Notes: generated by a model from the letters alone, not told the origin. A stretch of DNA of 64,000 nucleotides from an uncultured Candidatus Saccharibacteria bacterium (GCA_964610055.1 CAZSUC010000001.1:216867-280866), one strand, 5' to 3'; positions 42,207-57,077 are shown, numbered from the stretch's first letter. Numbers and translations: made by a program.

Positions 42207-42762
42207 TGGTCGTCTCCTAACAAGGTGACAAAGAACAACCCAGCTCGTCCTTCTAAAGATCCATATCTTTAGGCGCTGGTGAGAAAAACTTTTCTCTCAT
42301 CATCCGCCCAAAACTAAAATCTCCTGGGATGAGCCAGGAGATGTGTAATCTAGTTAATATCTTTAAATATTCTTACAAACTTCCTGGCTGAATGCAGATG
42401 AGCGGACATGCAATAGGGTAATAAACCAAGCTGCCATTGCCGCACGGTTATACAAACGCTTAGTTGTGCTATTACCTAACATAAATTCATCATAATGTTT
42501 TTAACATTAGTGTCAAATTAAATTTGACTTAAACGCAATAAATATGTTAAACAATAATCACATGCAATTATTTAGTTACCAAAATAATCAGAAAGTTTCT
42601 ATGCACTTTCGTGCCGGACGTCTTTTGTTTGCCCAAGGTAGCTTAAATAGCCCAATACTCAGATAAATTATTTTTTCTCTAATTAACTACCTTGGCCAAA
42701 CAAAGCCAAGGTAGTTTTGTTTTCGGCCTTATGTACCTTTAACTCAAAAAGGAGCCCACTAA

Positions 42763-43949
42763 TGATCCACGTGAACTACAACATTCCTAAATTGTACTTG
42801 CTGTACGCTTTCCAAAGCATGTCTTTTTGCTCTGGCTTGATCATTCCTTTTGTCATTGCTAACCACGTCACTCTCGATGAATTCTTTTTGCTTCAGTCTC
42901 TTTATTCTTTAGCTGTATTTATCTTAGAAGTGCCATCCGGATACGCGTCAGACATTTGGGGTCGCAAACCAACCATCATGATCTCTGGTCTTGCTGGGAC
43001 AGCTGGCAGTTTTTTGTATGCCTTAGGCACCAATTTTTGGCACTTTCTTGTCGCCGAATTGCTTTTAGCTATTCTTTGGAGTTTCCAATCTGGTACTCTT
43101 GACGCTTTGACTTACGAAACGCATCAAGAACTTAAGCTGAGCAATAGTCATTACGACTATGTTACTCATCGGCAAAAGTTTTTGAACTTTCTGTTTCAAG
43201 CCATTGGATCATTCATGGGAGGAATTGTCGCTTACTTTTTTGGCTTGCGCGTGGCGCTGTTATGTACGGCAGTGAGTTACAGTTTTGTTCCTCTGATCAC
43301 TTGGTCTCTTGTTGAGCCAGCTCGTCATACCCAAAAAGAAGCACAAGCCATCAAGGATATCTGGCGGGTTTGTTACCAAACGTTTCGGTTCAACGTTCCG
43401 CTGCGCAGCATTATCATGCTTTCTAGCGCCCTCGGAACCATGACTATGGGATTGGTTTGGTTGGGACAGGCTTACCAAGACGAGATTCACTTGCCTGTGC
43501 ATTGGTATGGATTCAGCAATACTGCAATCTTAAGCGCTACCGCTTTTGCTGTTTGGTGTTTGCCTAAACTCAAGCAACGTTTAGATGATCGTAAGTTGCT
43601 CATGGGCATTTCCGCAGTGATCCTTTTGAGCTACTTTGCCATCGGTCAAACGCTCTCAGTTTTTGGATTACTGTTCTTCTTGTTAGGTCGAGCTATGTGG
43701 GGCGCTCTGAGTGCTTTAAAAGTTACCATGATGCAACCTCTCATTCCATCGCATCGACGCGCTACAGTACTCTCCTTTGAAAGCTTACTTGGTCGCCTTA
43801 TATTTGCTGCTGCATCTCTGTTTATGGGTGCCTTAGCACAATCGGGCGGAGTGAGTATTACAGCTACTGTCATTGCTACCATTGGTACGATTATTGTAGT
43901 CAGCATCTTTCTCGCCATGCGGCCGATCTGGCGCCAGCTGCCCTCCTAA
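42763..43949 (+). CDS. MFS transporter
   Basis: About 12 predicted TM helices with a G..G.SD.WGRKP-like loop (GYASDIWGRKP) after TM2. The start was moved from the track's 42717 to ATG 42763, which has AAAGGAG 7 nt upstream. Confidence 0.7.
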
Positions 43950-44776: not shown

Positions 44777-45175
44777 ATGTTAACTAATGTTTCCGCTTTT
44801 ATTTTCAAAGACAATCAAGTCTTAATCGCTCAAAGAGCTGATAATGAAGACTTGCTATTAGGCTATTGGGAATTAGTTGGCGGAGGTGTCGAAACAAATG
44901 AAACTCCAAAGCAAGCGTGCCTTAGAGAGACAAAAGAAGAAGCAGGTATAGATATTGCAATTGGTCGACAATATGGTAATTTCCCTTTTACTCATCCAGA
45001 ACTTGGTCAAATTGATAGCCTTGCTTTTGTTTGTGTTCCCAAATCAAATTCCGCAATCACATTGAGTTTCGAACATCAAAACTATCGTTGGATTACAGCC
45101 GCAGAACTAGGGGATATTAACCCAATGACTGATCGCATGCGTTCTATGATTCTTCAGGGTTTTAATGAAGTTTAG
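44777..45175 (+). CDS. NUDIX hydrolase
   Basis: Nudix box GGGVETNETPKQACLRETKEEAGI. Confidence 0.8.
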   Translation: MLTNVSAFIFKDNQVLIAQRADNEDLLLGYWELVGGGVETNETPKQACLRETKEEAGIDIAIGRQYGNFPFTHPELGQIDSLAFVCVPKSNSAITLSFEHQNYRWITAAELGDINPMTDRMRSMILQGFNEV

Positions 45176-45473
45176 CTTGTAAAACTTCCACATTCCGAAT
45201 AAACTCTTTTTCTAAATCAATTCCATACTCATCTGCTAGCACTAACACGCTCCATAAACAATCTGCTAATTCATGTGCTAAAGCCTCATCCACATTATCA
45301 ATTTTCCTAATACCTTGCTTAGCCAGTATTAATTTCATTAAATCACCTACATCTCCTACGAATCCTTCGGCAATATTTTCCCTAGTCCAATTTTTATTGT
45401 ATGTAATTTTCTCATACTTTCTATATATCTCTCTTAGTTCCAACGCTTTTTCCTTTAATTCGTTAAATTGCAT
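45162..45473 (-). CDS. MazG-like nucleotide pyrophosphohydrolase
   Basis: EEVGDLMKL-like and ELADCLWSVLVLADEYGIDL blocks of the all-alpha MazG/NTP-PPase fold. Confidence 0.7.
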   Translation of the reverse strand: MQFNELKEKALELREIYRKYEKITYNKNWTRENIAEGFVGDVGDLMKLILAKQGIRKIDNVDEALAHELADCLWSVLVLADEYGIDLEKEFIRNVEVLQAKLH

Positions 45474-45504
45474 TATTTTATCTTAAGTAGAGTAAAGTAA
45501 TATT

Positions 45505-46008
45505 ATGCTTAACGTTAAACCTTTCCAGGAGACTTTGCACGGTGGCTATTGTGGTCCAGCAAGCCTAAAAATGGTCTTAAACTATTACGGCCGAGATAAA
45601 AGCGAAGAAGAGATAGCTGTGCAATGCAAACGCGACCCCGATCTTGGCACTACCGATATTGCTCTTAAACAAGTCGCCGAAAACTATGGATTTGAAGTAA
45701 TTATCCAAGATAAAGCCTCGTTTGATGACCTAAAGCACTGGTTAGACCGAAAAGTACCTGTAATCGTTAATTGGTTTACTCGCGGTCGTTCGAACTATTC
45801 AGACTCTGAAGTTCCTGACGGTCATTATTCTGTCGTCATCGGTTTAGACGCTAACAACATCTATCTCCAAGACCCGGAAATAGGGAATATACGCACTATC
45901 AGCCGGGATAATTTCCTAAAAGTATGGTTTGATTTCAAATCCAGCCACATCCAATCATGGGAAGATTTAATCCTCCGGCAAATCATCGCCATTTATCCTA
46001 AAGAGTAA
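45505..46008 (+). CDS. stand-alone peptidase C39-like domain protein
   Basis: HGGYCGPASLKMVLNYYG (catalytic Cys context) plus downstream His (DGHYSVVIG) and Asp (QDPE), typical of the C39/C39-like papain fold. Confidence 0.6.
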   Translation: MLNVKPFQETLHGGYCGPASLKMVLNYYGRDKSEEEIAVQCKRDPDLGTTDIALKQVAENYGFEVIIQDKASFDDLKHWLDRKVPVIVNWFTRGRSNYSDSEVPDGHYSVVIGLDANNIYLQDPEIGNIRTISRDNFLKVWFDFKSSHIQSWEDLILRQIIAIYPKE

Positions 46009-46024
46009 TAAAATTGTTCATCAT

Positions 46025-46420
46025 ATGAAAAAAGAAAGCGTTGGTATTCTGATTACAAATAAAGCCGGAGAATACCTTTTACAAATGCGAGATGGAACCC
46101 CTGGTATTTGCAACCCTTTACGCTGGAACTTTTTTGGCGGTCGACGCAATAATCTCGAAGAAATTATTTCCGGAGCTATGCGTGAGTTATCTGAAGAATT
46201 AGATATTATTGCGAATTCAGAAGAATTCAAAATTCTTGGGGACATTATTTTTCCTGACGGTGAGTTTTACACTCTTACTCAATATTTGAAACCAATAACT
46301 TGGCGCGATTTCAGTGTTAATGAAGGCGCTGGAGCAGCTTTTTTTACGAAGCAAGAGCTAGAACAAATTAACATTACCGAAAAAACCAAACTACTAATCC
46401 ATAAATTTATTATTGGATAA
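46025..46420 (+). CDS. NUDIX hydrolase
   Basis: Nudix box FGGRRNNLEEIISGAMRELSEELDI. Confidence 0.7.
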   Translation: MKKESVGILITNKAGEYLLQMRDGTPGICNPLRWNFFGGRRNNLEEIISGAMRELSEELDIIANSEEFKILGDIIFPDGEFYTLTQYLKPITWRDFSVNEGAGAAFFTKQELEQINITEKTKLLIHKFIIG

Positions 46421-46423
46421 ATA

Positions 46424-46876
46424 ATGTTAACATGCGTTTTTGAAAACGGAGACGAAGCATCACTGCGACATGCAGTCGTGCAAGGAATTGTGCTAAATCA
46501 GGATAACCAACTCATGCTTATTAAGCGGGCAGTCAACTTGATTGAAGGAAGTAAATGGGCCTTACCGGGTGGTTATGTTGAGCGCGATGAAACGCTTCCC
46601 GAAGCTCTTACACGGGAAGTTAAAGAAGAAACTGGTTGGGAAATTAAAAATATAAAACTCATTAGTATTTACGATAATCCTAATCGCCCTCGTGAAGATC
46701 GACAAAACATCGCCTTTAACTACATCTGTCTGGCTACTAAGCAAACCGGTCAACATGACCATGAAGTTACCGCAACGCACTGGTTTTCTTTAACGGATCC
46801 AGTCGTTAAGAACCTCGCTTTTGATCATTCTAATGCAGTCAATGATTTTATTAGCCAAAAAAATATTCGTGACTAA
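46424..46876 (+). CDS. NUDIX hydrolase
   Basis: Nudix box LPGGYVERDETLPEALTREVKEETGW. Confidence 0.8.
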   Translation: MLTCVFENGDEASLRHAVVQGIVLNQDNQLMLIKRAVNLIEGSKWALPGGYVERDETLPEALTREVKEETGWEIKNIKLISIYDNPNRPREDRQNIAFNYICLATKQTGQHDHEVTATHWFSLTDPVVKNLAFDHSNAVNDFISQKNIRD

Positions 46877-46981
46877 AATATGGCAATTGCACCGTTTGGC
46901 CTAATTCAGCAAGCATACCAATTAAAATTTTTAATAAGCACTCCAATAACATTGATCATTTAGTAAACGATATTATTAACT

Positions 46982-47563
46982 ATGCCAAAATCTAAAGAAA
47001 TCAAACCTTGGAAACTAATTAACTCCGAAATGGTTTTAGATGAAAAATGGTACCGTGTTCGTAAAGATACTGTCGAAGTCCGCCCAGATCGAATTATTGA
47101 CGATTACTACATCGGTCTTTTCAATGACATTGTTTTAATCCTTGCTCTTACTCCGGACAATAACGTTCCTCTGGTGCGTCAATATAAACATAGAGCCGGG
47201 GAAATCCTCTTAGAACTCCCGGCTGGTTACATGGATCCAGGCGAAGAACCGCTGCATGCCGCTCAAAGAGAATTGCAAGAAGAAACTGGGTTTACTGCTA
47301 AAGATTGGCAATATTTTGGTTGTTTCATCTCAAACTCCGCTAAATCAAAAGGGAATAATGTTCATATTTTTCTTGCGCGCAACGCTGTTCAAACTCACTC
47401 GCAAAACCTAGATCCTAACGAAGACATCGAAATTGTTACTATTCCTTTTCAAGATGCCATTAAAAAAGCTCTTAATCATGAAATCAAAGGCAGTGATAGT
47501 GTTTTGGCTCTCCTTCTAACTGAAAAACAGAAAAAATCAATTTACCGCCACGCGCAAAAATGA
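46982..47563 (+). CDS. NUDIX hydrolase (ADP-ribose pyrophosphatase-like)
   Basis: Nudix box LPAGYMDPGEEPLHAAQRELQEETGF with an N-terminal NudF-like extension. Confidence 0.8.
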   Translation: MPKSKEIKPWKLINSEMVLDEKWYRVRKDTVEVRPDRIIDDYYIGLFNDIVLILALTPDNNVPLVRQYKHRAGEILLELPAGYMDPGEEPLHAAQRELQEETGFTAKDWQYFGCFISNSAKSKGNNVHIFLARNAVQTHSQNLDPNEDIEIVTIPFQDAIKKALNHEIKGSDSVLALLLTEKQKKSIYRHAQK

Positions 47564-47907: not shown

Positions 47908-49149
47908 ATGAACGACAATTTATCACAAAAATTAACTGCAACCTCAAACAAGACCGGCGAGCCAAAACCGGTTTTTTTTGACCTCAGTTCTAATGCAGAC
48001 CAATCCAAACTCGAGGATCTGTTAGAAAAAAATCCTCATACAAAAATTGTTGATACGTATGATACGCAGTTGCTCGAATCTTTTGTTCTAGATCATCCAG
48101 CTTTACACATTAATCATCCTGAACGTGATCGTCAGTTTAAAGATTACCGCGATCAGCATTATGGTACCCAAGAAGCTTGGCAAGCCGGTAAATGGGTTTA
48201 TCTTCCTTGGAGACACATCTTGCTCCATATTCTAGACGATGCTTCGTATCAAAAAGTTCGCACCGGGCGTAACCGTAACCTTATTACTGCAGCTGAACAG
48301 GACAAGTTTTATAACAGTACTATCGGTATCGGTGGTCTGTCGGTTGGTAACAGTATCGTACTGGCTATTGTTTTAAGCGGTGGGGGAAAGCATATGAAAT
48401 TGGCTGATCCAGATACTTTGGAACTAACAAATCTTAATCGCATTCGCGGTAGCATATCCGAACTCACTGAGCCAAAAGTATATATGACTGCTCGACAAAT
48501 TTACGAGCTTGATCCTTATGCGGATCTGACTCTCTACACCGACGGGATTACTGAAGACAATATTACTGATTTCTTTACCGGTTTAGATTTGGTTATTGAT
48601 GAAATAGATAATCTAGGAATCAAAATTCGTATCCGTCAGCATGCTCAAAAAAATCGTATCCCAGTAGTGATGGCAGCTGACAATGGAGAAGGAGGCATTT
48701 TAGACGTTGAACGACATGACAAAGAAGACAATATCCCATATTTTCATGGTCGAGCTGGCCAAGACATTGAAGATCGCGTTTTAAATCAACATTTACCTCT
48801 ACCTTTAATTGGTAAGGTAATTTGTGAAGAACTTATTGGCTACGATATGACCGATGAACGAATGCAACAGTCTGTCTTGCAGATTGGCCAAGAAATTCCT
48901 ACTTGGCCTCAATTAGGAGCCGCCGCTCTCTTAAATGGAGTTGCTGTTGCTGGTACCGTTAGGCGTATTTTAAATAATCAGCCCGCCGTTAATGATAGAG
49001 CTGATTTGCGTATGAGTGCTTGGCTTGATCCTTATTACAATGATCCTGAGCAAGCCGAACAACGCCGCCGCAATACCGAAAAATTCGGTAAGGCTTACGA
49101 TCAGAATATCGAACAGTTTCTAAAAATGATGCAAAAGAAACTTAACTAG
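47908..49149 (+). CDS. ThiF/MoeB/E1-like adenylyltransferase family protein with long N-terminal extension
   Basis: Rossmann GxGxxG (IGIGGLSVGNSIVLAI), followed by a DPD...L.NLNR arginine-finger region and a DxxD-like block (LVIDEIDN). Confidence 0.6.
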   Translation: MNDNLSQKLTATSNKTGEPKPVFFDLSSNADQSKLEDLLEKNPHTKIVDTYDTQLLESFVLDHPALHINHPERDRQFKDYRDQHYGTQEAWQAGKWVYLPWRHILLHILDDASYQKVRTGRNRNLITAAEQDKFYNSTIGIGGLSVGNSIVLAIVLSGGGKHMKLADPDTLELTNLNRIRGSISELTEPKVYMTARQIYELDPYADLTLYTDGITEDNITDFFTGLDLVIDEIDNLGIKIRIRQHAQKNRIPVVMAADNGEGGILDVERHDKEDNIPYFHGRAGQDIEDRVLNQHLPLPLIGKVICEELIGYDMTDERMQQSVLQIGQEIPTWPQLGAAALLNGVAVAGTVRRILNNQPAVNDRADLRMSAWLDPYYNDPEQAEQRRRNTEKFGKAYDQNIEQFLKMMQKKLN

Positions 49150-50299
49150 CACCTAAAATTACCTCAACTTTCTCTACATCATCCGGACTTAACGCAAAAT
49201 GAGCTCGTAAATAACCCGTATCAGCACTCCCAGGCCTAAAGAAAGGAATACCAGGCGCCACCGCGATGCCTTTATCTAATAGCTCCTGCATCGCTGCCAT
49301 ATCACTGGCGCGATTATGTTTTACCATCATGTAATAAGCCCCCTGCGGCGACACTGGTTCCATGCCATATTTCTCAAAAGCAGCCATAATTCTTATTCGA
49401 TTATTTCGATATTGTCCCACTAAATCTGACACAAACCGATCTAATTGGTTGCTTTCTGTTTGCCATAAGTCTGCTAAAATCAATTGCGCTGGCGCTGGTG
49501 CACCTACGTATAAAGCCTCATGAATATGCGTCATATTAGCCCGTCGTTCAGGAGCAGTTATCGCATATCCTGTTCTCCAGCCAGCTAAGGCTAAATTCTT
49601 GGAAAAACTCCTACAGATTACTAAGTGGTTTAAATCGGAAGCTAAACTTAAAAGGGAAGTATAATCATTTTCCCAAATAAAATCTTGATAAACCTCATCC
49701 ATTACTAGCAGCACATTATTACGAACACATAAATTGTACAATTTTTCTAAATCATCCTTATCAATCACTGTGCCTGTCGGATTAGCTGGATTTCCAATTA
49801 ATAATGCCTTGAGCCCCGGGATTTTTTGGCCAATAGTTTCCCAGTTCAATTTAAATTCAGTATTGTAGGGAATGTATTCCGTAACCGCTTGAATAGCTTG
49901 AATGGCCCAATTATGAGCTGGATAAAAAGGCTCCAACAAGCCTACTTTATCGCCGGGAGCGCATACTGTTCTTAAAGCAGAAACTACTCCACCTGTTACT
50001 CCATTAGTTGCCATTACTTCCTCTAAAGTTAAGTCAGCTCTTTCTCTTTGCAAGCGATTTAATAGTGCTGCTCTATATTCCTTATATCCTGCTGGAGAAG
50101 CATAAGTATGCATTCGGCGCTCTTTAAACCTCTCATTTAATTTATCCAAGAAAATCTTAGGTGGGGCAGTATGAACTACTCCTTGCGCCATATCAATTGC
50201 TCCAGCTTCAACTGCCATGTCGGCCATTTCTCGGCCTGTTGGTAAATGCGTCCCGTTATTTTTAATCATCAAAACCTTGGCATCGATAACATTTTTCAT
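49142..50299 (-). CDS. PLP-dependent aminotransferase (class I/II, AAT fold)
   Basis: SFSKNLALAGWRTGY (PLP-lysine block), NPANPTG, and a C-terminal R for substrate carboxylate. Confidence 0.85.
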   Translation of the reverse strand: MKNVIDAKVLMIKNNGTHLPTGREMADMAVEAGAIDMAQGVVHTAPPKIFLDKLNERFKERRMHTYASPAGYKEYRAALLNRLQRERADLTLEEVMATNGVTGGVVSALRTVCAPGDKVGLLEPFYPAHNWAIQAIQAVTEYIPYNTEFKLNWETIGQKIPGLKALLIGNPANPTGTVIDKDDLEKLYNLCVRNNVLLVMDEVYQDFIWENDYTSLLSLASDLNHLVICRSFSKNLALAGWRTGYAITAPERRANMTHIHEALYVGAPAPAQLILADLWQTESNQLDRFVSDLVGQYRNNRIRIMAAFEKYGMEPVSPQGAYYMMVKHNRASDMAAMQELLDKGIAVAPGIPFFRPGSADTGYLRAHFALSPDDVEKVEVILGAS

Positions 50300-50322: not shown

Positions 50323-50356
50323 GCCCAATAAAAAGCGGCAGGTGATACCCGCCGCA
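50323..50356 (-). terminator. rho-independent terminator closing the RiPP operon
   Basis: Minus-strand GCGGCGGGTATCACCTGCCGC hairpin followed by TTTTTATTGGG. Lies between the small membrane-protein gene and the aminotransferase start. Confidence 0.5.
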
Positions 50357-50381: not shown

Positions 50382-50657
50382 TTAGCCGAAAAGCCAGGGG
50401 ACCAGAGACCAGAAAGCCCAATGTGCCATGTAACCGATGCCACACATCAGCAGGGTTACAACCGTGACGATCATCCAAAGAGGAGTCTGGAATGGCGCTG
50501 CAAAATCAACGGATTCACTGGGCGCACTTGTCTCTAAGTTCGCATGCGGCAACAGGCCATCCCGAGCGCGGGACTCCCACGCAATCTTGCTAGGAGTCTC
50601 ACTGTCATTCCTGTGATTTTGATCCGCACCAACATCGTAAGAACTCCCGTGCATCAC
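50382..50657 (-). CDS. small membrane protein (2 C-terminal TM helices); candidate immunity/export accessory
   Basis: 91 aa with a hydrophilic N-terminus and a C-terminal WMIVTVVTLLMCGIGYMAHWAFWSLVPWLF. It is the last gene of the operon and has higher GC than the host background. Confidence 0.4.
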   Translation of the reverse strand: MMHGSSYDVGADQNHRNDSETPSKIAWESRARDGLLPHANLETSAPSESVDFAAPFQTPLWMIVTVVTLLMCGIGYMAHWAFWSLVPWLFG

Positions 50658-50796: not shown

Positions 50797-51471
50797 CTAA
50801 AAAATTTCCTCTGCTTTGACCTCCACAATTGCCGCCGGATTCTTAATATTCCGTTTCGCCATATACTGCCGCACCATATCATACCCCAGCGAATACCCAG
50901 TCCACTTTTTTATACCGTTCCCCCCGTAAAACCAATCATCGCGGTTAAAATCTTCAGACTTCAAGATCGGTTTTGCTTTTTTCCAAATCAGACTCAACTC
51001 CTGACTATCAAGATTATGAGCATACGGCACATCAATATCAGAATACATAAATTCCTCAAACATTGACGGCAATCCCTCGTCAACTAACGCCTCACCCAAT
51101 GTTTTTGCTACTGGCCAAGTGGCATATCGTCTAGCATGGCACATCTCATGGGCAATTGCTGATGGCATCCATTGTTTTACATTATGAATTATCCCATTTT
51201 TATGTTTTGGGTCTATAAAAATTAGAATTGTATCTGCTTCGCCGCACCGGCCTCCTACACCCTGCTCCGGAATAGTCGCAAATTTATCCGCATAAACCAA
51301 AATATTACACTCCTTAAGATTAAGCCATTTATTACAGTCAGTCACAGCCTCTCGCGCCACTTCTAAAACATTAGCCGCATCTAGCACTTCCGCATCTTGA
51401 TCATGTATCCGGTACATTAAATGGATATAAATTTTACTGCTAGTTATCTTGTATGAGAATTTTGTGAGCAT
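50797..51471 (-). CDS. putative Zn-dependent metallopeptidase (HExxH; DUF2268-like?)
   Basis: SAIAHEMCHARRY contains HEMCH with a downstream Glu (VDEGLPSMFEEF). Immediately downstream of the precursor gene in the same orientation. Confidence 0.5.
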   Translation of the reverse strand: MLTKFSYKITSSKIYIHLMYRIHDQDAEVLDAANVLEVAREAVTDCNKWLNLKECNILVYADKFATIPEQGVGGRCGEADTILIFIDPKHKNGIIHNVKQWMPSAIAHEMCHARRYATWPVAKTLGEALVDEGLPSMFEEFMYSDIDVPYAHNLDSQELSLIWKKAKPILKSEDFNRDDWFYGGNGIKKWTGYSLGYDMVRQYMAKRNIKNPAAIVEVKAEEIF

Positions 51472-51490: not shown

Positions 51491-51526
51491 ATTAATAAAA
51501 GGGCCGACTGTATAGGAGCCGGCCCA
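51491..51526 (-). terminator. intra-operon partial terminator/attenuator immediately after precursor gene
   Basis: Minus-strand GGGCCGGCTCCTATACAGTCGGCCC hairpin followed by TTTTATTAAT. Sits 17 nt after the precursor stop codon. Confidence 0.45.
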
Positions 51527-51542: not shown

Positions 51543-51725
51543 CTAGCGGCTGCACTTACCGCCGCCGTTTGATCCGCCACCGCTGCACTTACCGCCGCCG
51601 TTTGATCCGCCGGCACATCCGTTTCCGCTTGCTTGCATCTCGCGGGTAGAAATACCGCGAGAATAAGCGAGCCGCGTCACCTTCAGTTGAGGAGACGCTT
51701 TTTTCGCAACCGTCTCTGACGGCAC
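51543..51725 (-). CDS. RiPP precursor peptide, microcin B17-like Gly/Ser/Cys/Asn-rich core (LAP/TOMM substrate)
   Basis: 60 aa: MPSETVAKKASPQLKVTRLAYSRGISTREMQAS | GNGCAGGSNGGGKCSGGGSNGGGKCSR. GTG start with AAGGAGGT 5 nt upstream. Lies 15 nt downstream of the YcaO gene. The core has 3 Cys, 4 Ser, 3 Asn and 14 Gly in 27 residues. Confidence 0.7.
   Translation of the reverse strand: MPSETVAKKASPQLKVTRLAYSRGISTREMQASGNGCAGGSNGGGKCSGGGSNGGGKCSR
51549..51611. repeat. perfect 33-nt direct tandem repeat (x2) inside precursor core
   Basis: GCTGCACTTACCGCCGCCGTTTGATCCGCC occurs at 51549 and again at 51582 (period 33). It encodes the duplicated core module GGSNGGGKCS. Confidence 0.85.
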
Positions 51726-51740
51726 AACGAACCTCCTTTC

Positions 51741-53603
51741 CTAATCCAAAGGGTGGACAGAAAATCTTAGAGGCACATCCTTAACTTCAACGACACGAGT
51801 ATGCGGGAGCTGGTTGAACCCAAACGTCAAAGGAACAAACCAGGGACTCAGGAGCCGCACCACCCTCAATCCCTGTACCTCACCATACGCAACCGAGTAC
51901 AGCGCGTCAACACCTAATTGTCGACACACTTTGACAACGTCGGCGCTTTCAACAACCTCTTCGGAAAAGCAAGGCTTCGTTAACTCTGACTCTGAAAAAG
52001 TTGTTGAAGACCACAAAAAAGAAGCTGAAACCAAGTTTTCAGGATTGTTAAACCAGCACGCATGGTCATCTGGCGTCCTAACGTCCTGTAAGGCAATTCG
52101 CGGCTTTTCTTCCATGTGCATTGCCGGATCCAGTAACCGGCAAAACAATCCTACCTCAGCTTCTTTCCAAGCACTCAGCAGTGCTTCTTGGACAGTGTTG
52201 CGCGCAGCTGCGCCGCAAATCATCGCCGGCCAATTGTTTCTCCGCAAGACTACTAGCATCGTGGGTACGATAGTCTTGGATATATCAAGGAAATCCACCT
52301 GATATCCAAGTGACCGCACCTTATCGCATTCCGCGACGAGGTCTCGGGGAATCATGCACTCAGACAATCGTGACGGAGGCTGGCGAAAAATCCAGGTTTT
52401 CATGAACGCATCGCGTTCAATGAGCTCTAATAGCGCCGAAAACTGCGCTTTCGCAACAGACATTCCAGCAGCCATACCAGAAGAGTTCGCCCAACGGCAT
52501 CTTTGCTTGTAAGAATGCGGTTGGAAAGGGTAGTAACACAAATCAGCAAGAATCCGCACTTCCTGACCAGTTATAACACTAATGGCATTGCGCCAATAGT
52601 ATTTGCAATCTGGTTTAAAAGGGCGCAGCTCCGCATCCTCGCATTGGCTACCAGTCAAGTGATACAGGGAATCGGGGTCAATCCGATTTTTGCTTCCATG
52701 CAATGACCCATATTCAAGTCCATGAGTATTGTATTTTCCAGCCGCATGCCTCTCCAAAGCTTCTGCGGACGAAACCAAATGCGCTGTGAGCCTATCCCTG
52801 TGCGCGCCACTTGCGACTGGATTACGTCTCCCGTCCCATTGTCCTTTTTGGCGATAGCGAGACATAACTATCGCCACAGACGGAGAAAATCCCGTGGACA
52901 AATCTGTGATTACAGATTGCTGAACCACAGAGCCAAATGGACCACAATAATGCCAATTCCCAACATCAATCCAATTAACTGTGCGCTCGCGGACACTAAT
53001 CTCGCATAGGCATTCATCCTCCGCTAACAAAGAGACAATCGTACTAGCAAGCCACTTACACGTGTCATGCTCAATAAAATTTTCTCCAGGAATAACTACC
53101 TCGCCCGTGTTCCAGAAAAGAGGGCGTGCCCTATCTAGCCAAACGCCAGCAAACGCCCACTCAATCAGCCGCTTAGCCAGAAGCTTTTGCTGTCGTGGTT
53201 TAGATAGCTTGGCCAACAGGTAAAGAGGGCCAAACCGGAAGCCTAAACCATAGCATTTCCCAGTTTTATTAAAAACTGGGAAATGCTGAAAAATTGGCAA
53301 ACCCGAGCAATTCTCTGCGATGTGCCAGTCAAGTCGATCAGGAGGTTGGGTATCCAAAACCCAGACTTGCTCTTGAATCAACAATGACCATAGCGACATC
53401 ATTTTTTCTGGGGGAACATTGCTTTGTTCAGCAAAATTCCAGACAATTACTTGATCAAGCAGGCCATTCTTATAACCTGCACACGCACGTAACAAGTGCG
53501 AGACCTGAGCATCAGCAATGGAAACCTCGTTCTGTAGACTTACGAACTCGGCCCGGTCACTCAGAAAAAACAGATCATATGTAGGGTTAAACCTAACAAT
53601 CAT
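51741..53603 (-). CDS. YcaO-domain cyclodehydratase (TOMM SagD/McbD-type) with ~230 aa N-terminal extension
   Basis: YcaO signature RWANSSGMAAGMSVAKAQFSALLELIERDAF (ATP/Mg-binding S...E..ER motif) and downstream conserved blocks. The N-terminal ~230 aa has no Rossmann motif and is a possible leader-binding/E1-like docking domain. Confidence 0.85.
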   Translation of the reverse strand: MIVRFNPTYDLFFLSDRAEFVSLQNEVSIADAQVSHLLRACAGYKNGLLDQVIVWNFAEQSNVPPEKMMSLWSLLIQEQVWVLDTQPPDRLDWHIAENCSGLPIFQHFPVFNKTGKCYGLGFRFGPLYLLAKLSKPRQQKLLAKRLIEWAFAGVWLDRARPLFWNTGEVVIPGENFIEHDTCKWLASTIVSLLAEDECLCEISVRERTVNWIDVGNWHYCGPFGSVVQQSVITDLSTGFSPSVAIVMSRYRQKGQWDGRRNPVASGAHRDRLTAHLVSSAEALERHAAGKYNTHGLEYGSLHGSKNRIDPDSLYHLTGSQCEDAELRPFKPDCKYYWRNAISVITGQEVRILADLCYYPFQPHSYKQRCRWANSSGMAAGMSVAKAQFSALLELIERDAFMKTWIFRQPPSRLSECMIPRDLVAECDKVRSLGYQVDFLDISKTIVPTMLVVLRRNNWPAMICGAAARNTVQEALLSAWKEAEVGLFCRLLDPAMHMEEKPRIALQDVRTPDDHACWFNNPENLVSASFLWSSTTFSESELTKPCFSEEVVESADVVKVCRQLGVDALYSVAYGEVQGLRVVRLLSPWFVPLTFGFNQLPHTRVVEVKDVPLRFSVHPLD

Positions 53604-54630
53604 CCATAGTCTCCTCCAGGCGACCAGCTAAAACGACAGTAAGAGGCACAACGCCATCTAACAGGTTAAGAACAGCGGACAACTCACGATCAAAAAACCC
53701 ACCAACTTCTACACAACCCAAGCCACACTCAGCACAAAAAATTTGCAAATTTTGTGCTGCATGACCGGCTTCAAGAATAGTGTAGCGATAACCGCGATCA
53801 CCATACTTCCTACACACGAATGGCACATCACCACTGATCACAAAACATGCCCCGCAAGTATCTACATAAGTGTCTTTCATAAAGCAACCATGAAAGGCAG
53901 TAGTATCTTGCCATTTAGTCAGCAGATGAATGTCATGGGTGTAAGAATACACTCCGCTGTCAAGTCCAGGCGACGGTGTTGTAACAAGAACATGCAGCAT
54001 AAGCGGATAGAGAGCGCCAGCTGACGGTATCGTACGGCGTAATAAACCGCAAGACTCCCAAGCAAACGATCCTACCACCCCGCATGCAGACCAACACAAA
54101 TCCCTAACCTCCTGGCGCTTGAGAGGCGCCCCAGTAAACTGACGAGACGTGCGTCGACTACATAATAACTTCGCAAAGGGGGTCGTCGGCACCGGCAGAA
54201 AGCCTCCTACAGGCTGCCTTTTCTGCACTTCGTTGTACAAATTGTTCATCTCATCGTCAGACAGCCTCTTAAAAAGAGGCATGGGATTGTTGCCGTATGC
54301 ATGAAATGCACGCCAGCATTCCTGGGCATCTACTAACGCTCCGCTACTTTGTAACAACTCAACCAGTGACAAAATTGACGGAAGTGGGTATGAGCAAGAA
54401 AGAACCTCAATAATCTCATGTAACTCGTAGTAGCCGGAACAATAACGCAACAAATCCCGCTGAAGCTGAACGTCACATTCAACTACTATGACTTCCTCGG
54501 GAAGGTAATACCGCATAGAGGAAATACAGTTATCAACGTAACAAGTAACCCTAGGGCGCCAAGAAAGGCTCATCAGAAGTTTCTCCTTATAATTGTCAAA
54601 GAACTGTCCAAAACGACGACAATCAATCAT
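53593..54630 (-). CDS. SagB-type FMN-dependent dehydrogenase (McbC-like azoline oxidase, nitroreductase fold)
   Basis: N-terminal SagB-specific extension followed by a nitroreductase core (LLCSRRTSRQF; AGALYP; RYTILEAGHAAQNLQIFCAECGLG). Overlaps the YcaO gene by 11 bp. Confidence 0.8.
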   Translation of the reverse strand: MIDCRRFGQFFDNYKEKLLMSLSWRPRVTCYVDNCISSMRYYLPEEVIVVECDVQLQRDLLRYCSGYYELHEIIEVLSCSYPLPSILSLVELLQSSGALVDAQECWRAFHAYGNNPMPLFKRLSDDEMNNLYNEVQKRQPVGGFLPVPTTPFAKLLCSRRTSRQFTGAPLKRQEVRDLCWSACGVVGSFAWESCGLLRRTIPSAGALYPLMLHVLVTTPSPGLDSGVYSYTHDIHLLTKWQDTTAFHGCFMKDTYVDTCGACFVISGDVPFVCRKYGDRGYRYTILEAGHAAQNLQIFCAECGLGCVEVGGFFDRELSAVLNLLDGVVPLTVVLAGRLEETMDDC

Positions 54631-54825
54631 TCACTATTATTGCTCTATAAGCAAATTAAACCTGTCAATCAAAACTGACAAACAAAAAACCAATTTTTTG
54701 CCACAAGGCTATTTACATGTTCAAAACCCAGTATAAACTAATCCCCCAAAACCAGCTAAAATAGGCATGGTTTCCAGCATCGGGTTTATCGTGCGTATCC
54801 TAGCTGTTTTTATTAACCCTCGTGT

Positions 54826-55447
54826 ATGACCTATCAACATTTCACCGTCGAGGAACGAGAAACAATTCAACTCGGACTTTGGCAGAGGGAGTCGATCAGT
54901 TCCATCGCAAAACGTCTGGGACGCTCAGCCTCGTCCGTCAGTCAAGAGATTAAGAGGAATCTGTACCTCAAGCGTCGCTGGTCACCAGAACAGATTGCGG
55001 GTCGCATCAAGCGTGACCTCGGCGAGACTATTTCTCACGAAGCAATTTACTAATTCATCTACTCCTAGGTGTATCGAGAAGGCCATGGGTATGTGAAGCC
55101 AGCTCATTAAGACTTGCGGCCATACCTACGCCGACGCCGTAAGCGACGCCTTGCTCGCGGTAGCCGTTGTTGCCAGCGAGTGCCGCGACCAAAAACACCC
55201 TCACGGAACGGCGGACCGGTAAGCTCTTCATTATGAAATTGCCTGACCGAACAGCGGCGAGTACCGCCACCGCGGTGACGAGCCATCTGGAGCATCTGCC
55301 ACAGAGACTACGACGGACCCTCACCAGATGAGCTGGCGCATGTCGAAGCCGAGCTCAATGACCGGCCGCGCAAACGGCTCGGTTATTTAACCCCTAACGA
55401 AGCTATAGGGTGTTGCACTTCGAGGTTGAATCTACCGGAGACACGTT
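54826..55447 (+). pseudogene. IS30-family transposase remnant (N-terminal HTH plus C-terminal tail, DDE core deleted or scrambled)
   Basis: The 75-aa ORF MTYQHFTVEERETIQLGLWQRESISSIAKRLGRSASSVSQEIKRN...WSPEQIAGRIK...ISHEAIY matches the IS30 Tnp N-terminus. At 55330..55447 another frame reads DELAHVEAELNDRPRKRLGYLTPNEAI, the typical IS30 C-terminus. The middle ~270 bp is GC-rich with no intact frame. Confidence 0.55.
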
Positions 55448-55475: not shown

Positions 55476-57077
55476 ATGAATATGAAAAATATTCCGTTTC
55501 CAGTACCAACCATTCCTGTAGAAAGTAAAAATCAGGATTCAAAATATTCGTATAAATATGCTCACAAAATTTATAAAGAATATTTTAATTTTCCGATCAA
55601 AAAAGCAAGGCAGACCCTAGAAGATACTTCGCCCGCAGATTGGAATAAGAAGGGCAAGGTGCAAGCATTAAACGTATTTCAAGCCGCTGCCCATCGCGTC
55701 CCAGCATATAAAGACTTCTTAAAGAAACATAAAGTTAATCCAAGCACCATCACCTCTGTATCTGATTTCGAAAAAATTCCAGTCATTGATAAAGAATCCT
55801 ACCTAAAACATTATCCCGTAGAACAGCTATGCTGGGACGGGATTTTTACTAATGGTAATATAATTTCAGTATCCTCTGGGTCTTCTGGAAAACCATTTTT
55901 ATGGCCTCGAGAAATCGGTCTTGAATTAGAAGTAACTTATTTTTTTGAACTTATTTTAGATTCGTTCTTTCATATTTCTAGTCACAAAACTCTATTAGTG
56001 GATTGTTTTGCTATGGGGATGTATGTAGGGGGACCGTTTGTATTAAATACAACCATGCGTATATCGCAAAAAGGCTACCCCATATCAATTGTTACTCCAG
56101 GGAATGTTATGGAGGATATTCTGCGCGTGGTTAAGGAACTCGGACCTCAGTATGAACAAGTTATATTATCCGGATACCCGCCTTTTATTAAGGACATTAT
56201 TGATAAAGGCAGAAAGATTGGAATCGATTTTAATTCTTTTAAAACAATTATATTTCCAGCAGGCGAAGGTTTCTCTGAATCATGGCGCAGTGCAGTTGCA
56301 GAAAATGCCAATATTCAAGATCCTGTTAATAGCCTCTTAGGATATTATGGTACTGCTGATGCTGCGGTTATGGGAGCAGAAACTCCTTGGTCTGTATTGA
56401 TACGTAAAGCTGTATCGCGAAATATAGAAAATATTGAAAAAATATTTGGAGAATGTCGCATGCCATCAGTTCTGCAATATATTCCGACGCTACGTTATTT
56501 TGAATTAATAAACGAGGAACTAGCCTTTACAGCCGCTAACGGATGTATACCTTTAGTGCGTTACAATATAAGAGATAAAGGAGGGCTATGGAAATTTACC
56601 GATGCACATAAAAATCTCAAACAAATAGGAGTGTCATATCAGGACGAGTTAGATCAAAATTCCAAATATGGTAAACCATGGCAATTGCCATTCGTTTATG
56701 TATTTGGGCGCAGTGATCAAACTGCTATTATCTACGGCGCTAATGTTTATCCTGAACACATCAAAATGATTCTTGAAAGTAAGGAATTGGCTGGCTACTG
56801 TTCTGGGCGTTTTGTTCTTGATACAGAAGAAGATCATTCGCATAATCAACATCTTATCTTGCATTTAGAATGTCATGCTCACGTTCAACGCAATAATGAT
56901 TTGCGAGACTACTTAACAAAAACTGTTTTTAAAATGCTCAAAAATATTAACGCAGAATACGCAAATTCCGCTAAAGCTAACGGGTCAAAAGCCATTCCTA
57001 AGATTTTCTTACAAGAATACGAAGATTCTCATTATTTTGCTCGAGACAAAAAGCAGCAGTGGAAGCTTAAAAAGTAA
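55476..57077 (+). CDS. PaaK/CapK-like adenylate-forming enzyme (phenylacetate-CoA ligase / F390 synthetase family)
   Basis: P-loop-like VSSGSSGKPFLWP in the ANL superfamily position, 533 aa, and a YGTADAA-like block. Very low GC, unlike the adjacent island. Confidence 0.55.
   Translation: MNMKNIPFPVPTIPVESKNQDSKYSYKYAHKIYKEYFNFPIKKARQTLEDTSPADWNKKGKVQALNVFQAAAHRVPAYKDFLKKHKVNPSTITSVSDFEKIPVIDKESYLKHYPVEQLCWDGIFTNGNIISVSSGSSGKPFLWPREIGLELEVTYFFELILDSFFHISSHKTLLVDCFAMGMYVGGPFVLNTTMRISQKGYPISIVTPGNVMEDILRVVKELGPQYEQVILSGYPPFIKDIIDKGRKIGIDFNSFKTIIFPAGEGFSESWRSAVAENANIQDPVNSLLGYYGTADAAVMGAETPWSVLIRKAVSRNIENIEKIFGECRMPSVLQYIPTLRYFELINEELAFTAANGCIPLVRYNIRDKGGLWKFTDAHKNLKQIGVSYQDELDQNSKYGKPWQLPFVYVFGRSDQTAIIYGANVYPEHIKMILESKELAGYCSGRFVLDTEEDHSHNQHLILHLECHAHVQRNNDLRDYLTKTVFKMLKNINAEYANSAKANGSKAIPKIFLQEYEDSHYFARDKKQQWKLKK

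Follow-up and report, generated by a model that had tools for sequence, protein, structure and literature searches.

Cyclodehydratases of thiazole/oxazole-modified microcin (TOMM) clusters unite a YcaO enzyme (the D protein) with an E1-like C protein, and in about half of the clusters C and D are fused (PMC4603692, PMC6395948). The cyanobactin fusions LynD, TruD, PatD and MusD (4V1T, 4BS9, 7U58) are proteins of 750-785 aa whose E1-like domain takes up ~200 aa or more. In the microcin B17 synthetase McbBCD (6GOS, 6GRI), the B, C and D components are separate subunits; McbB works with a dehydrogenase and a YcaO protein and carries a structural zinc on four cysteines (PMC6395948). Domains 1 and 2 of McbB and LynD are a recognition element (RRE) for ribosomally made peptides that undergo modification after translation (RiPPs) and an E1-like domain, respectively (PMC6395948; for McbB also PMC4603692). 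The haloazolisin-type short CD fusions of haloarchaea, described in 2015 as very divergent and uncharacterised, are found only with special hidden Markov models (HMMs) and miss ~200 N-terminal residues, including the leader-binding region (PMC4603692). Here we analyse a stretch of 64,000 nucleotides (the window) from an uncultured Candidatus Saccharibacteria bacterium (GCA_964610055.1, CAZSUC010000001.1:216867-280866), in which an open reading frame (ORF) on the minus strand, 51741..53603, encodes a YcaO protein of 620 aa with a long N-terminal extension. We think it likely that this gene specifies a single-chain CD cyclodehydratase of a TOMM or linear azol(in)e-containing peptide (LAP) pathway, the extension being the fused C component.

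The gene starts with ATG, and its annotation as a CD cyclodehydratase (RRE, trimmed E1-like domain, YcaO) is based on the reading frame, the Pfam YcaO match and 12 full-length homologues. The predicted ATP-dependent, amide-activating YcaO domain (PF02624, E=2.6e-36) covers residues 266-587 (51843..52808, minus strand). An earlier note on this DNA, made from the sequence alone, had described a YcaO protein with a long N-terminal extension; this is borne out, the folded part of the extension amounting to about 215 aa. TIGR03604 (SagD) matches residues 270-607 and is the top-scoring NCBIfam model for the protein despite a score below its cutoff. Two motifs are shared without change by 12 of 12 sequences, AEAxER (E281, E284, R285) and ELxERD (E393, E396, R397, D398), the second one in the fuller form SSGMAA...ELxERDAFM; they presumably match the residues that bind ATP and Mg in E. 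coli YcaO. In the PDB, the YcaO domain finds by sequence the archaeal MJ1094 YcaO (best match), MusD, TruD and LynD. The protein terminates in HPLD and the family in VHP[LFI]D or PHP[FL]A, with H617 and P618 invariant; these ends resemble the ...HPFP of canonical members and are not a full PxPxP.

Relatives sharing the whole length of this protein are rare. A word-indexed search of 5.8e9 protein clusters returned eight of them, the window protein included (39-50% identity), all remaining matches being restricted to the YcaO half. When 1.84e9 representative proteins were searched with an N-domain profile, five clusters came up; all consist of YcaO proteins of 615-631 aa, and in no case was the N-domain a separate protein. 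Further searching brought the total to 12 proteins, which form two subfamilies. Among 185,579 GTDB species representatives, a full-length member occurs in two metagenome-assembled genomes. More distant YcaO relatives are common in bacteria of the candidate phyla radiation (CPR).

The extension itself is invisible to current sequence models. Pfam and NCBIfam scans at E<=10 gave no match in residues 1-270 of the window protein, including none to the Rossmann-type E1/ThiF family PF00899, and the same scans of the N-termini of all eight close homologues gave a single chance match (DASH_Spc34, E=0.012, in one member). TIGR03882, the ocin-ThiF-like model, did not match any of the eight members tested at E<=10. 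The absence of a GxGxxG motif, pointed out earlier for the window protein, extends to residues 1-270 of all 12 family members; TOMM C domains normally lack this motif. Eleven aligned sequences, 19-43% identical to the window protein in the N-terminal region, nevertheless share 21 invariant columns there, with the conserved motifs GFRFG, EWAFSGKWLDRARPLFW and SRYRQ. Because the region is so strongly conserved, it must be regarded as a structured part of the protein.

An AlphaFold2 model of residues 1-295, built on the 12-sequence alignment, reached a predicted TM-score (pTM) of 0.70, with a predicted local distance difference test (pLDDT) of 80-94 over most of residues 1-215. Two domains are predicted. 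Residues 1-85 (53349..53603, minus strand) form a winged helix of the order ββββ-ααα, as expected of a leader-binding RRE; residues 111-215 (52959..53273, minus strand) form a small α/β domain (β-hairpin, α, α, β, α, β-hairpin) that we interpret as a trimmed E1-like domain. Foldseek against the PDB placed McbB first (E=8e-5, probability 1.0), followed by LynD (2e-4 to 8e-4) and MccB, and the alignments to McbB and LynD extend over 283-302 columns and take in both domains in order. Scored structural comparison of the modelled extension gave as relatives the BmdC oxidase (8.1), LynD (7.6), the PbtF RRE with bound leader (7.5; 2.5 Å / 77), TbiB1 with leader (7.4; 1.8 Å / 71), the Cap2 E1 domain (7.3 and 7.1; 3.0 Å / 97 and 2.6 Å / 88), MccB (7.0), ThcOx (6.8), TfuB1 (6.4) and McbB (6.3). 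On the strength of the model, the assignment of residues 1-85 as an RRE is well supported and that of residues 111-215 as an E1-like domain moderately supported; the E1 ancestry of the latter is deduced from the predicted fold. The earlier note had suggested a divergent RRE/docking domain or a degenerate E1 fold and had named structure prediction as the way to find out, and the prediction indeed supports it, yielding an RRE followed by a putative E1-like domain. Residues 216-265 (52809..52958, minus strand), which link the extension to the Pfam YcaO match, are conserved as well (F239, P241, SRYRQ at 248-252, W256). Their pLDDT is below 50 when they are modelled without the YcaO domain, of which they probably form the N-terminal strands.

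No E1-like gene adjoins the YcaO gene, whose neighbours are a SagB gene upstream and a small ORF and a DUF2268 gene downstream. The absence of an adjacent C protein, to which the earlier note had drawn attention, thus holds for both flanks, but it is not anomalous, since a CD fusion is what roughly half of TOMM clusters encode. The order SagB, CD-YcaO, precursor, DUF2268 is kept in all six other loci in which the contig reaches both flanks, and SagB, YcaO and DUF2268 are syntenic wherever the loci extend far enough.

The B protein, a predicted SagB-type dehydrogenase dependent on flavin mononucleotide (53593..54573, minus strand; Pfam Nitroreductase PF00881, E=1.3e-14), likely starts at the ATG at 54573, preceded by AAGGAGA, which gives 326 aa, also the length of the gene call in the homologous contig L002. 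Its stop codon lies in an 11-nt overlap with the YcaO ORF, and translational coupling of the two genes is found in all loci. The Lys-Tyr motif (R/K)KY..RGYRY, of a kind typical of azoline oxidases, is kept in 8 of 8 SagB sequences. Residues ~1-90 of SagB (54304..54573, minus strand) are homologous to the RRE of the YcaO protein (hhalign probability 86.6% over 78 columns). Judging by these profiles, a module for leader binding is apparently present in both SagB and YcaO.

Between the YcaO and DUF2268 genes, a predicted precursor peptide of 60 aa is encoded at 51543..51725 on the minus strand, with a GTG start and GGAGG 6 nt upstream. Its sequence, MPSETVAKKASPQLKVTRLAYSRGISTREMQASGNGCAGGSNGGGKCSGGGSNGGGKCSR, comprises the leader motif LKVTRLAY and a core built around two GGSNGGGKCS repeats. 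Homologous small ORFs occupy the same position in loci L003, L004, L005, L006, L008 and L009, and as in the window, the ribosome-binding (Shine-Dalgarno) sequence in front of them is strong. All precursors have in common the leader motif [F/L/V]xV[T/V/S][R/H]xxY[P/S], and Gly, Ser and Cys are abundant in their cores, where Cys and Ser replace each other at equivalent positions. On sequence grounds, the small ORFs are a family of RiPP precursors. In McbA, the precursor of microcin B17, the core is likewise rich in Gly and contains Ser and Cys. Upstream of SagB, where a precursor was also looked for, only remnants of an IS30-type transposase (plus strand) are present.

In the second subfamily, precursors at L008 6686..6847 and L009 3098..3268 have the core VCGNQT..C.GGC[KR]S and the leaders FKVTRKPY and FSVSHKPY, so that the leader has remained unchanged while the cores have diverged. 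One locus of this subfamily is binned as Candidatus Saccharibacteria.

The last core gene, 50797..51471 (minus strand; PF10026, E=4.3e-26), codes for a DUF2268 protein, a predicted zinc metalloprotease (HEMCH) and candidate leader peptidase. It follows the precursor in every locus that reaches that far, at 43-62% identity, and HExxH is present in 7 of 7 DUF2268 sequences.

Taken together, these features can be fitted to the standard model of a CD cyclodehydratase, and the leader binding, chemistry and protease role that follow are proposed by analogy. The RRE (residues 1-85) would capture the conserved leader motif of the precursor encoded immediately downstream, the leader presumably binding as an added β-strand as in LynD and McbB. 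Domain 2 (111-215), a putative E1-like remnant without zinc or nucleotide binding, would keep the RRE in contact with the YcaO domain and enhance the activity of the latter. The YcaO domain (~216 to 620) would use ATP to cyclodehydrate Cys and Ser of the core to azolines, likely at the interchangeable Cys/Ser after GGGK and at other Cys and Ser residues. The SagB flavoprotein, with its RRE-like N-terminus and Lys-Tyr motif, would then oxidise azolines to azoles, and the HExxH metalloprotease DUF2268 would cut off the leader.

Several observations weigh against this interpretation. The model of the extension was built on 12 sequences only, and a full-length AlphaFold model (8 sequences) had a mean pLDDT of 42.5, did not fold the YcaO domain and at most suggested a winged helix for residues 1-85. 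TM-scores to the structural relatives are ~0.25, a single domain superposing at a time. By sequence profile, the N-domain found in the PDB only a designed repeat protein (E=0.14), and hhalign comparison with the N-termini of ten TIGR03882-YcaO fusions was not significant (probability 1.2% for the N-domain, 2.8% for domain 2 alone). Owing to the low TM-scores and to this profile comparison, the E1-like assignment can be called only moderate. Domain 2, with ~105 aa, is half the size of domain 2 of LynD or McbB and is devoid of the Cys4 zinc site of McbB (PMC6395948), and no CxxC is conserved in the N-terminal region across the 12 family members. The match to TIGR03604 (123.3 bits) is below the cutoff of 219.25, and that of SagB to TIGR03605 (75.2 bits) just below the cutoff of 78.4. 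Finally, the cluster has no clear link to any gene for transport or immunity.

Some of these points would also suit other explanations. The protein might consist of an RRE joined to a lineage-specific, non-E1 scaffold, that is, an RRE-YcaO without a C-type domain, or the E1 function might be supplied in trans by the ThiF-family protein encoded at 47908..49149. Domain 2 is of half size, lacks CxxC and is not significantly similar in sequence to E1-like or ocin-ThiF families, all of which could be taken in this sense, as could the fact that ThiF, an aminotransferase, a PaaK-like enzyme and a histidine kinase have been retained between the window and locus L005 despite identities of 33-57% and rearrangement. 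Moreover, the ThiF protein matches only the N-terminal half of the Rv1355c-family model (positions 4-358 of 722, E=3e-91); the remaining half of that family is, as we assume, nitroreductase-like, which would hint at cooperation between ThiF and SagB. However, the top Foldseek matches span both domains of McbB and LynD co-linearly, and the second β-hairpin of domain 2, with its preceding helix, gives weak profile matches that recur in one register, ahead of the second CxxC in TIGR03882 proteins. The ThiF gene is on the other strand, beyond two terminator-like hairpins; it was not found within the available flanks of L003, L004, L006, L007, L008 and L009; and among solved structures it is closest to ThiF and TcdA, and not to McbB, LynD or other TOMM C proteins. 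We therefore consider both variants of this explanation unlikely.

A different chemistry, thioamidation or amidine (macrolactamidine) formation instead of azoline formation, might be suspected from the divergence of the YcaO domain, which stays far below the TIGR03604 cutoff, matches the McrA-thioamidation model TIGR03266 weakly (E=2.8e-14) and has an archaeal enzyme, MJ1094, as its best sequence match in the PDB. Yet the scanned genes of the 42.7-64 kb interval include neither TfuA nor any sulfur-delivery gene, a dehydrogenase with the KY motif is coupled to YcaO in every locus, Cys, Ser and Thr abound in the core peptides, in which Cys and Ser are exchanged for one another, and the protein ends in an H-P motif, not in a dimerisation domain (for comparison, see PMC6395948). 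Such a chemistry is very improbable. It is also hard to maintain that the N-terminal region is a mere extended N-lobe of YcaO or a disordered leader with no peptide-binding role. That no family model recognises the region and that the first full-length model was of low confidence would agree with this idea, which we disfavour and to which we give almost no credence. The fused CD cyclodehydratase thus remains our preferred interpretation.

Comparison with the known systems brings out what is peculiar to the window protein. It has 620 aa and a domain 2 of ~105 aa, which shows no detectable sequence similarity to the larger E1-like domain of LynD, TruD, PatD and MusD, and its cluster, unlike cyanobactin clusters, is without PatA/PatG proteases. 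Whereas the related fused proteins P0039 and P0048 carry Pfam ThiF, the extension of the window protein does not. McbB is its best Foldseek match, but C and D are fused here and no CxxC is conserved; no McbEFG-like export or immunity genes were seen in the window cluster, where the putative leader protease is DUF2268. The fusions of TIGR03882 domains with YcaO (610-690 aa) resemble the window protein in length and in having a non-Rossmann N-domain followed by a SagD-type YcaO, and by inspection their secondary-structure order is similar (β-hairpin, helices, β-hairpin). They differ from it in matching TIGR03882 with E-values of 1e-18 to 1e-32, in possessing two invariant CxxC pairs and in having YcaO halves that pass the TIGR03604 cutoff; the window family has no TIGR03882 match and hhalign probabilities of 1-3%. 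The haloazolisin fusions are described as lacking the leader-binding region, while the window family keeps a clear RRE and trims the E1-like part; the window sequence is, furthermore, bacterial (ORFs of translation table 11, ribosome-binding sites of the GGAGG type), not haloarchaeal. ThcOx and BmdC (5LQ4, 7LY4), RRE-bearing azoline oxidases of cyanobactin and nonribosomal peptide synthetase systems, are comparable to the B protein of the window and not to its YcaO protein.

The CD-fusion architecture as such is already known, C and D being fused in so many TOMM clusters and the short haloazolisin fusions having been noted in 2015. New are the sequence family, missed by all current models, the pairing of a preserved RRE with a trimmed second domain that has no zinc site, the family of precursors, and the association with DUF2268. 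We found no literature that links DUF2268 to YcaO or RiPPs and nothing relevant on YcaO in CPR bacteria or Saccharibacteria. Whether the family represents, all at once, a minimal cyclodehydratase design, two enzymes docking the same leader, a new class of leader peptidase (DUF2268) and a source of Gly-rich polyazoles similar to microcin B17 is rather doubtful. In such a minimal design, an RRE plus a half-size, zinc-free E1-like remnant would suffice to couple leader binding to YcaO activation, and the second docking enzyme would be a SagB with a paralogous RRE. On our preferred interpretation, the case shows that a YcaO protein with "no partner" and an unannotatable N-terminus can still be a complete CD cyclodehydratase. 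Genome mining by sequence models (TIGR03603, TIGR03882, PF00899, RRE HMMs) would overlook such a C domain, and the cluster could be wrongly recorded as that of a stand-alone YcaO. Having been minimised by nature, the C domain would be useful for dissecting the E1-like contribution to YcaO potentiation, and the compact cluster of four genes (B, CD, A and protease) should be easy to express. For DUF2268, the cluster would provide the first functional context, with a testable role as leader peptidase. With Cys, Ser and Lys in a Gly-rich setting, the core is similar to that of microcin B17, and these little-investigated bacteria could therefore be making a poison of the gyrase type. None of this is at odds with what is currently understood of YcaO enzymology.

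In two other YcaO proteins of ~610 aa, P0032 and P0040, the N-terminal region has no CxxC pairs, and the last residues are HPFD or HPLG; a further cryptic kind of partner domain may be present at their N-termini.

Two terminator-like hairpins accompany the core genes. The one at 51501..51525 (minus strand), directly behind the precursor gene and ahead of DUF2268, has a stem of 9 bp (7 GC) followed by TTTTATT and was identified by consensus match only; it is a possible attenuator that would tune the ratio of precursor to enzyme. The second, strong one, at 50335..50355, separates the core operon from the aminotransferase gene. In the gap between DUF2268 and the aminotransferase, an ORF of 91 aa (50382..50657, minus strand) corresponds to a gene call in the metagenome contigs L001 and L002. 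Its product has a hydrophobic C-terminal segment and no family match, and the gene calls at this position in the other loci include no counterpart.

Beyond the second hairpin lie a class I/II aminotransferase gene (49142..50299, minus strand) and the canonical ThiF/E1-type adenylyltransferase gene (47908..49149, plus strand; Pfam ThiF, E=2.2e-19). The earlier note had stated that the only E1-like gene is 2.6 kb away on the other strand and of host-like GC content, and this proved correct: the gene, the sole ThiF-family gene nearby, is 2592 nt from the YcaO stop, and its GC content is 0.41 (window 0.424). No gene matching TIGR03882 was found among the scanned neighbours. As the missing C protein, the ThiF protein was ruled out in view of its canonical relatives, its opposite strand, the two hairpins and its conservation, within the available flanks of the homologous loci, only in L005 (57% identity), the locus of extended synteny. 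A full-length copy of the aminotransferase, too, is confined to L005 among these loci (36% identity). The two genes are convergent in the window, with an 8-nt overlap; in L005 they are divergent and lie on the other side of the core. L005 also holds a PaaK-like ligase and a GAF histidine kinase (50% identity), the set as a whole being 33-57% identical and rearranged in order. This suggests that the ThiF set comprises accessory genes of one sub-clade; ThiF and the aminotransferase may act as a module accessory to the cluster or in a pathway of their own.

On the other side of the core, a PaaK-like adenylate-forming enzyme of 533 aa is encoded at 55476..57077 (plus strand; NCBIfam PaaK, E=1.5e-14). 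It has no Pfam match and finds phenylacetate-CoA ligase in the PDB with E=5e-5. L003 has a homologue immediately behind its DUF2268 gene (43% identity), L005 has one of 33% identity, and L008 contains a fragment. The enzyme might modify the peptide, the conserved Lys of the core being one conceivable site.

Farther away, 44777..47563 (plus strand) contains four NUDIX hydrolase genes with a gene for a stand-alone C39/C70-like cysteine peptidase (45505..46008) among them, and a transporter gene of the major facilitator superfamily (42717..43949) precedes this run. NUDIX genes are located near the cluster in L005, L006 and L008 as well. The peptidase and the transporter could serve the RiPP, but its leader is without a double-glycine site.

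The gap between the SagB and PaaK-like genes, 54700..55400 (plus strand), contains remnants of an IS30-family transposase, among them a 75-aa ORF with an HTH_38 domain (54826..55053) and further frame-broken pieces, and the local GC content there is 0.53 against 0.42 for the window. The YcaO and SagB genes have GC contents of 0.48 and 0.474. These values are consistent with arrival of the higher-GC B-CD-A segment by horizontal transfer.

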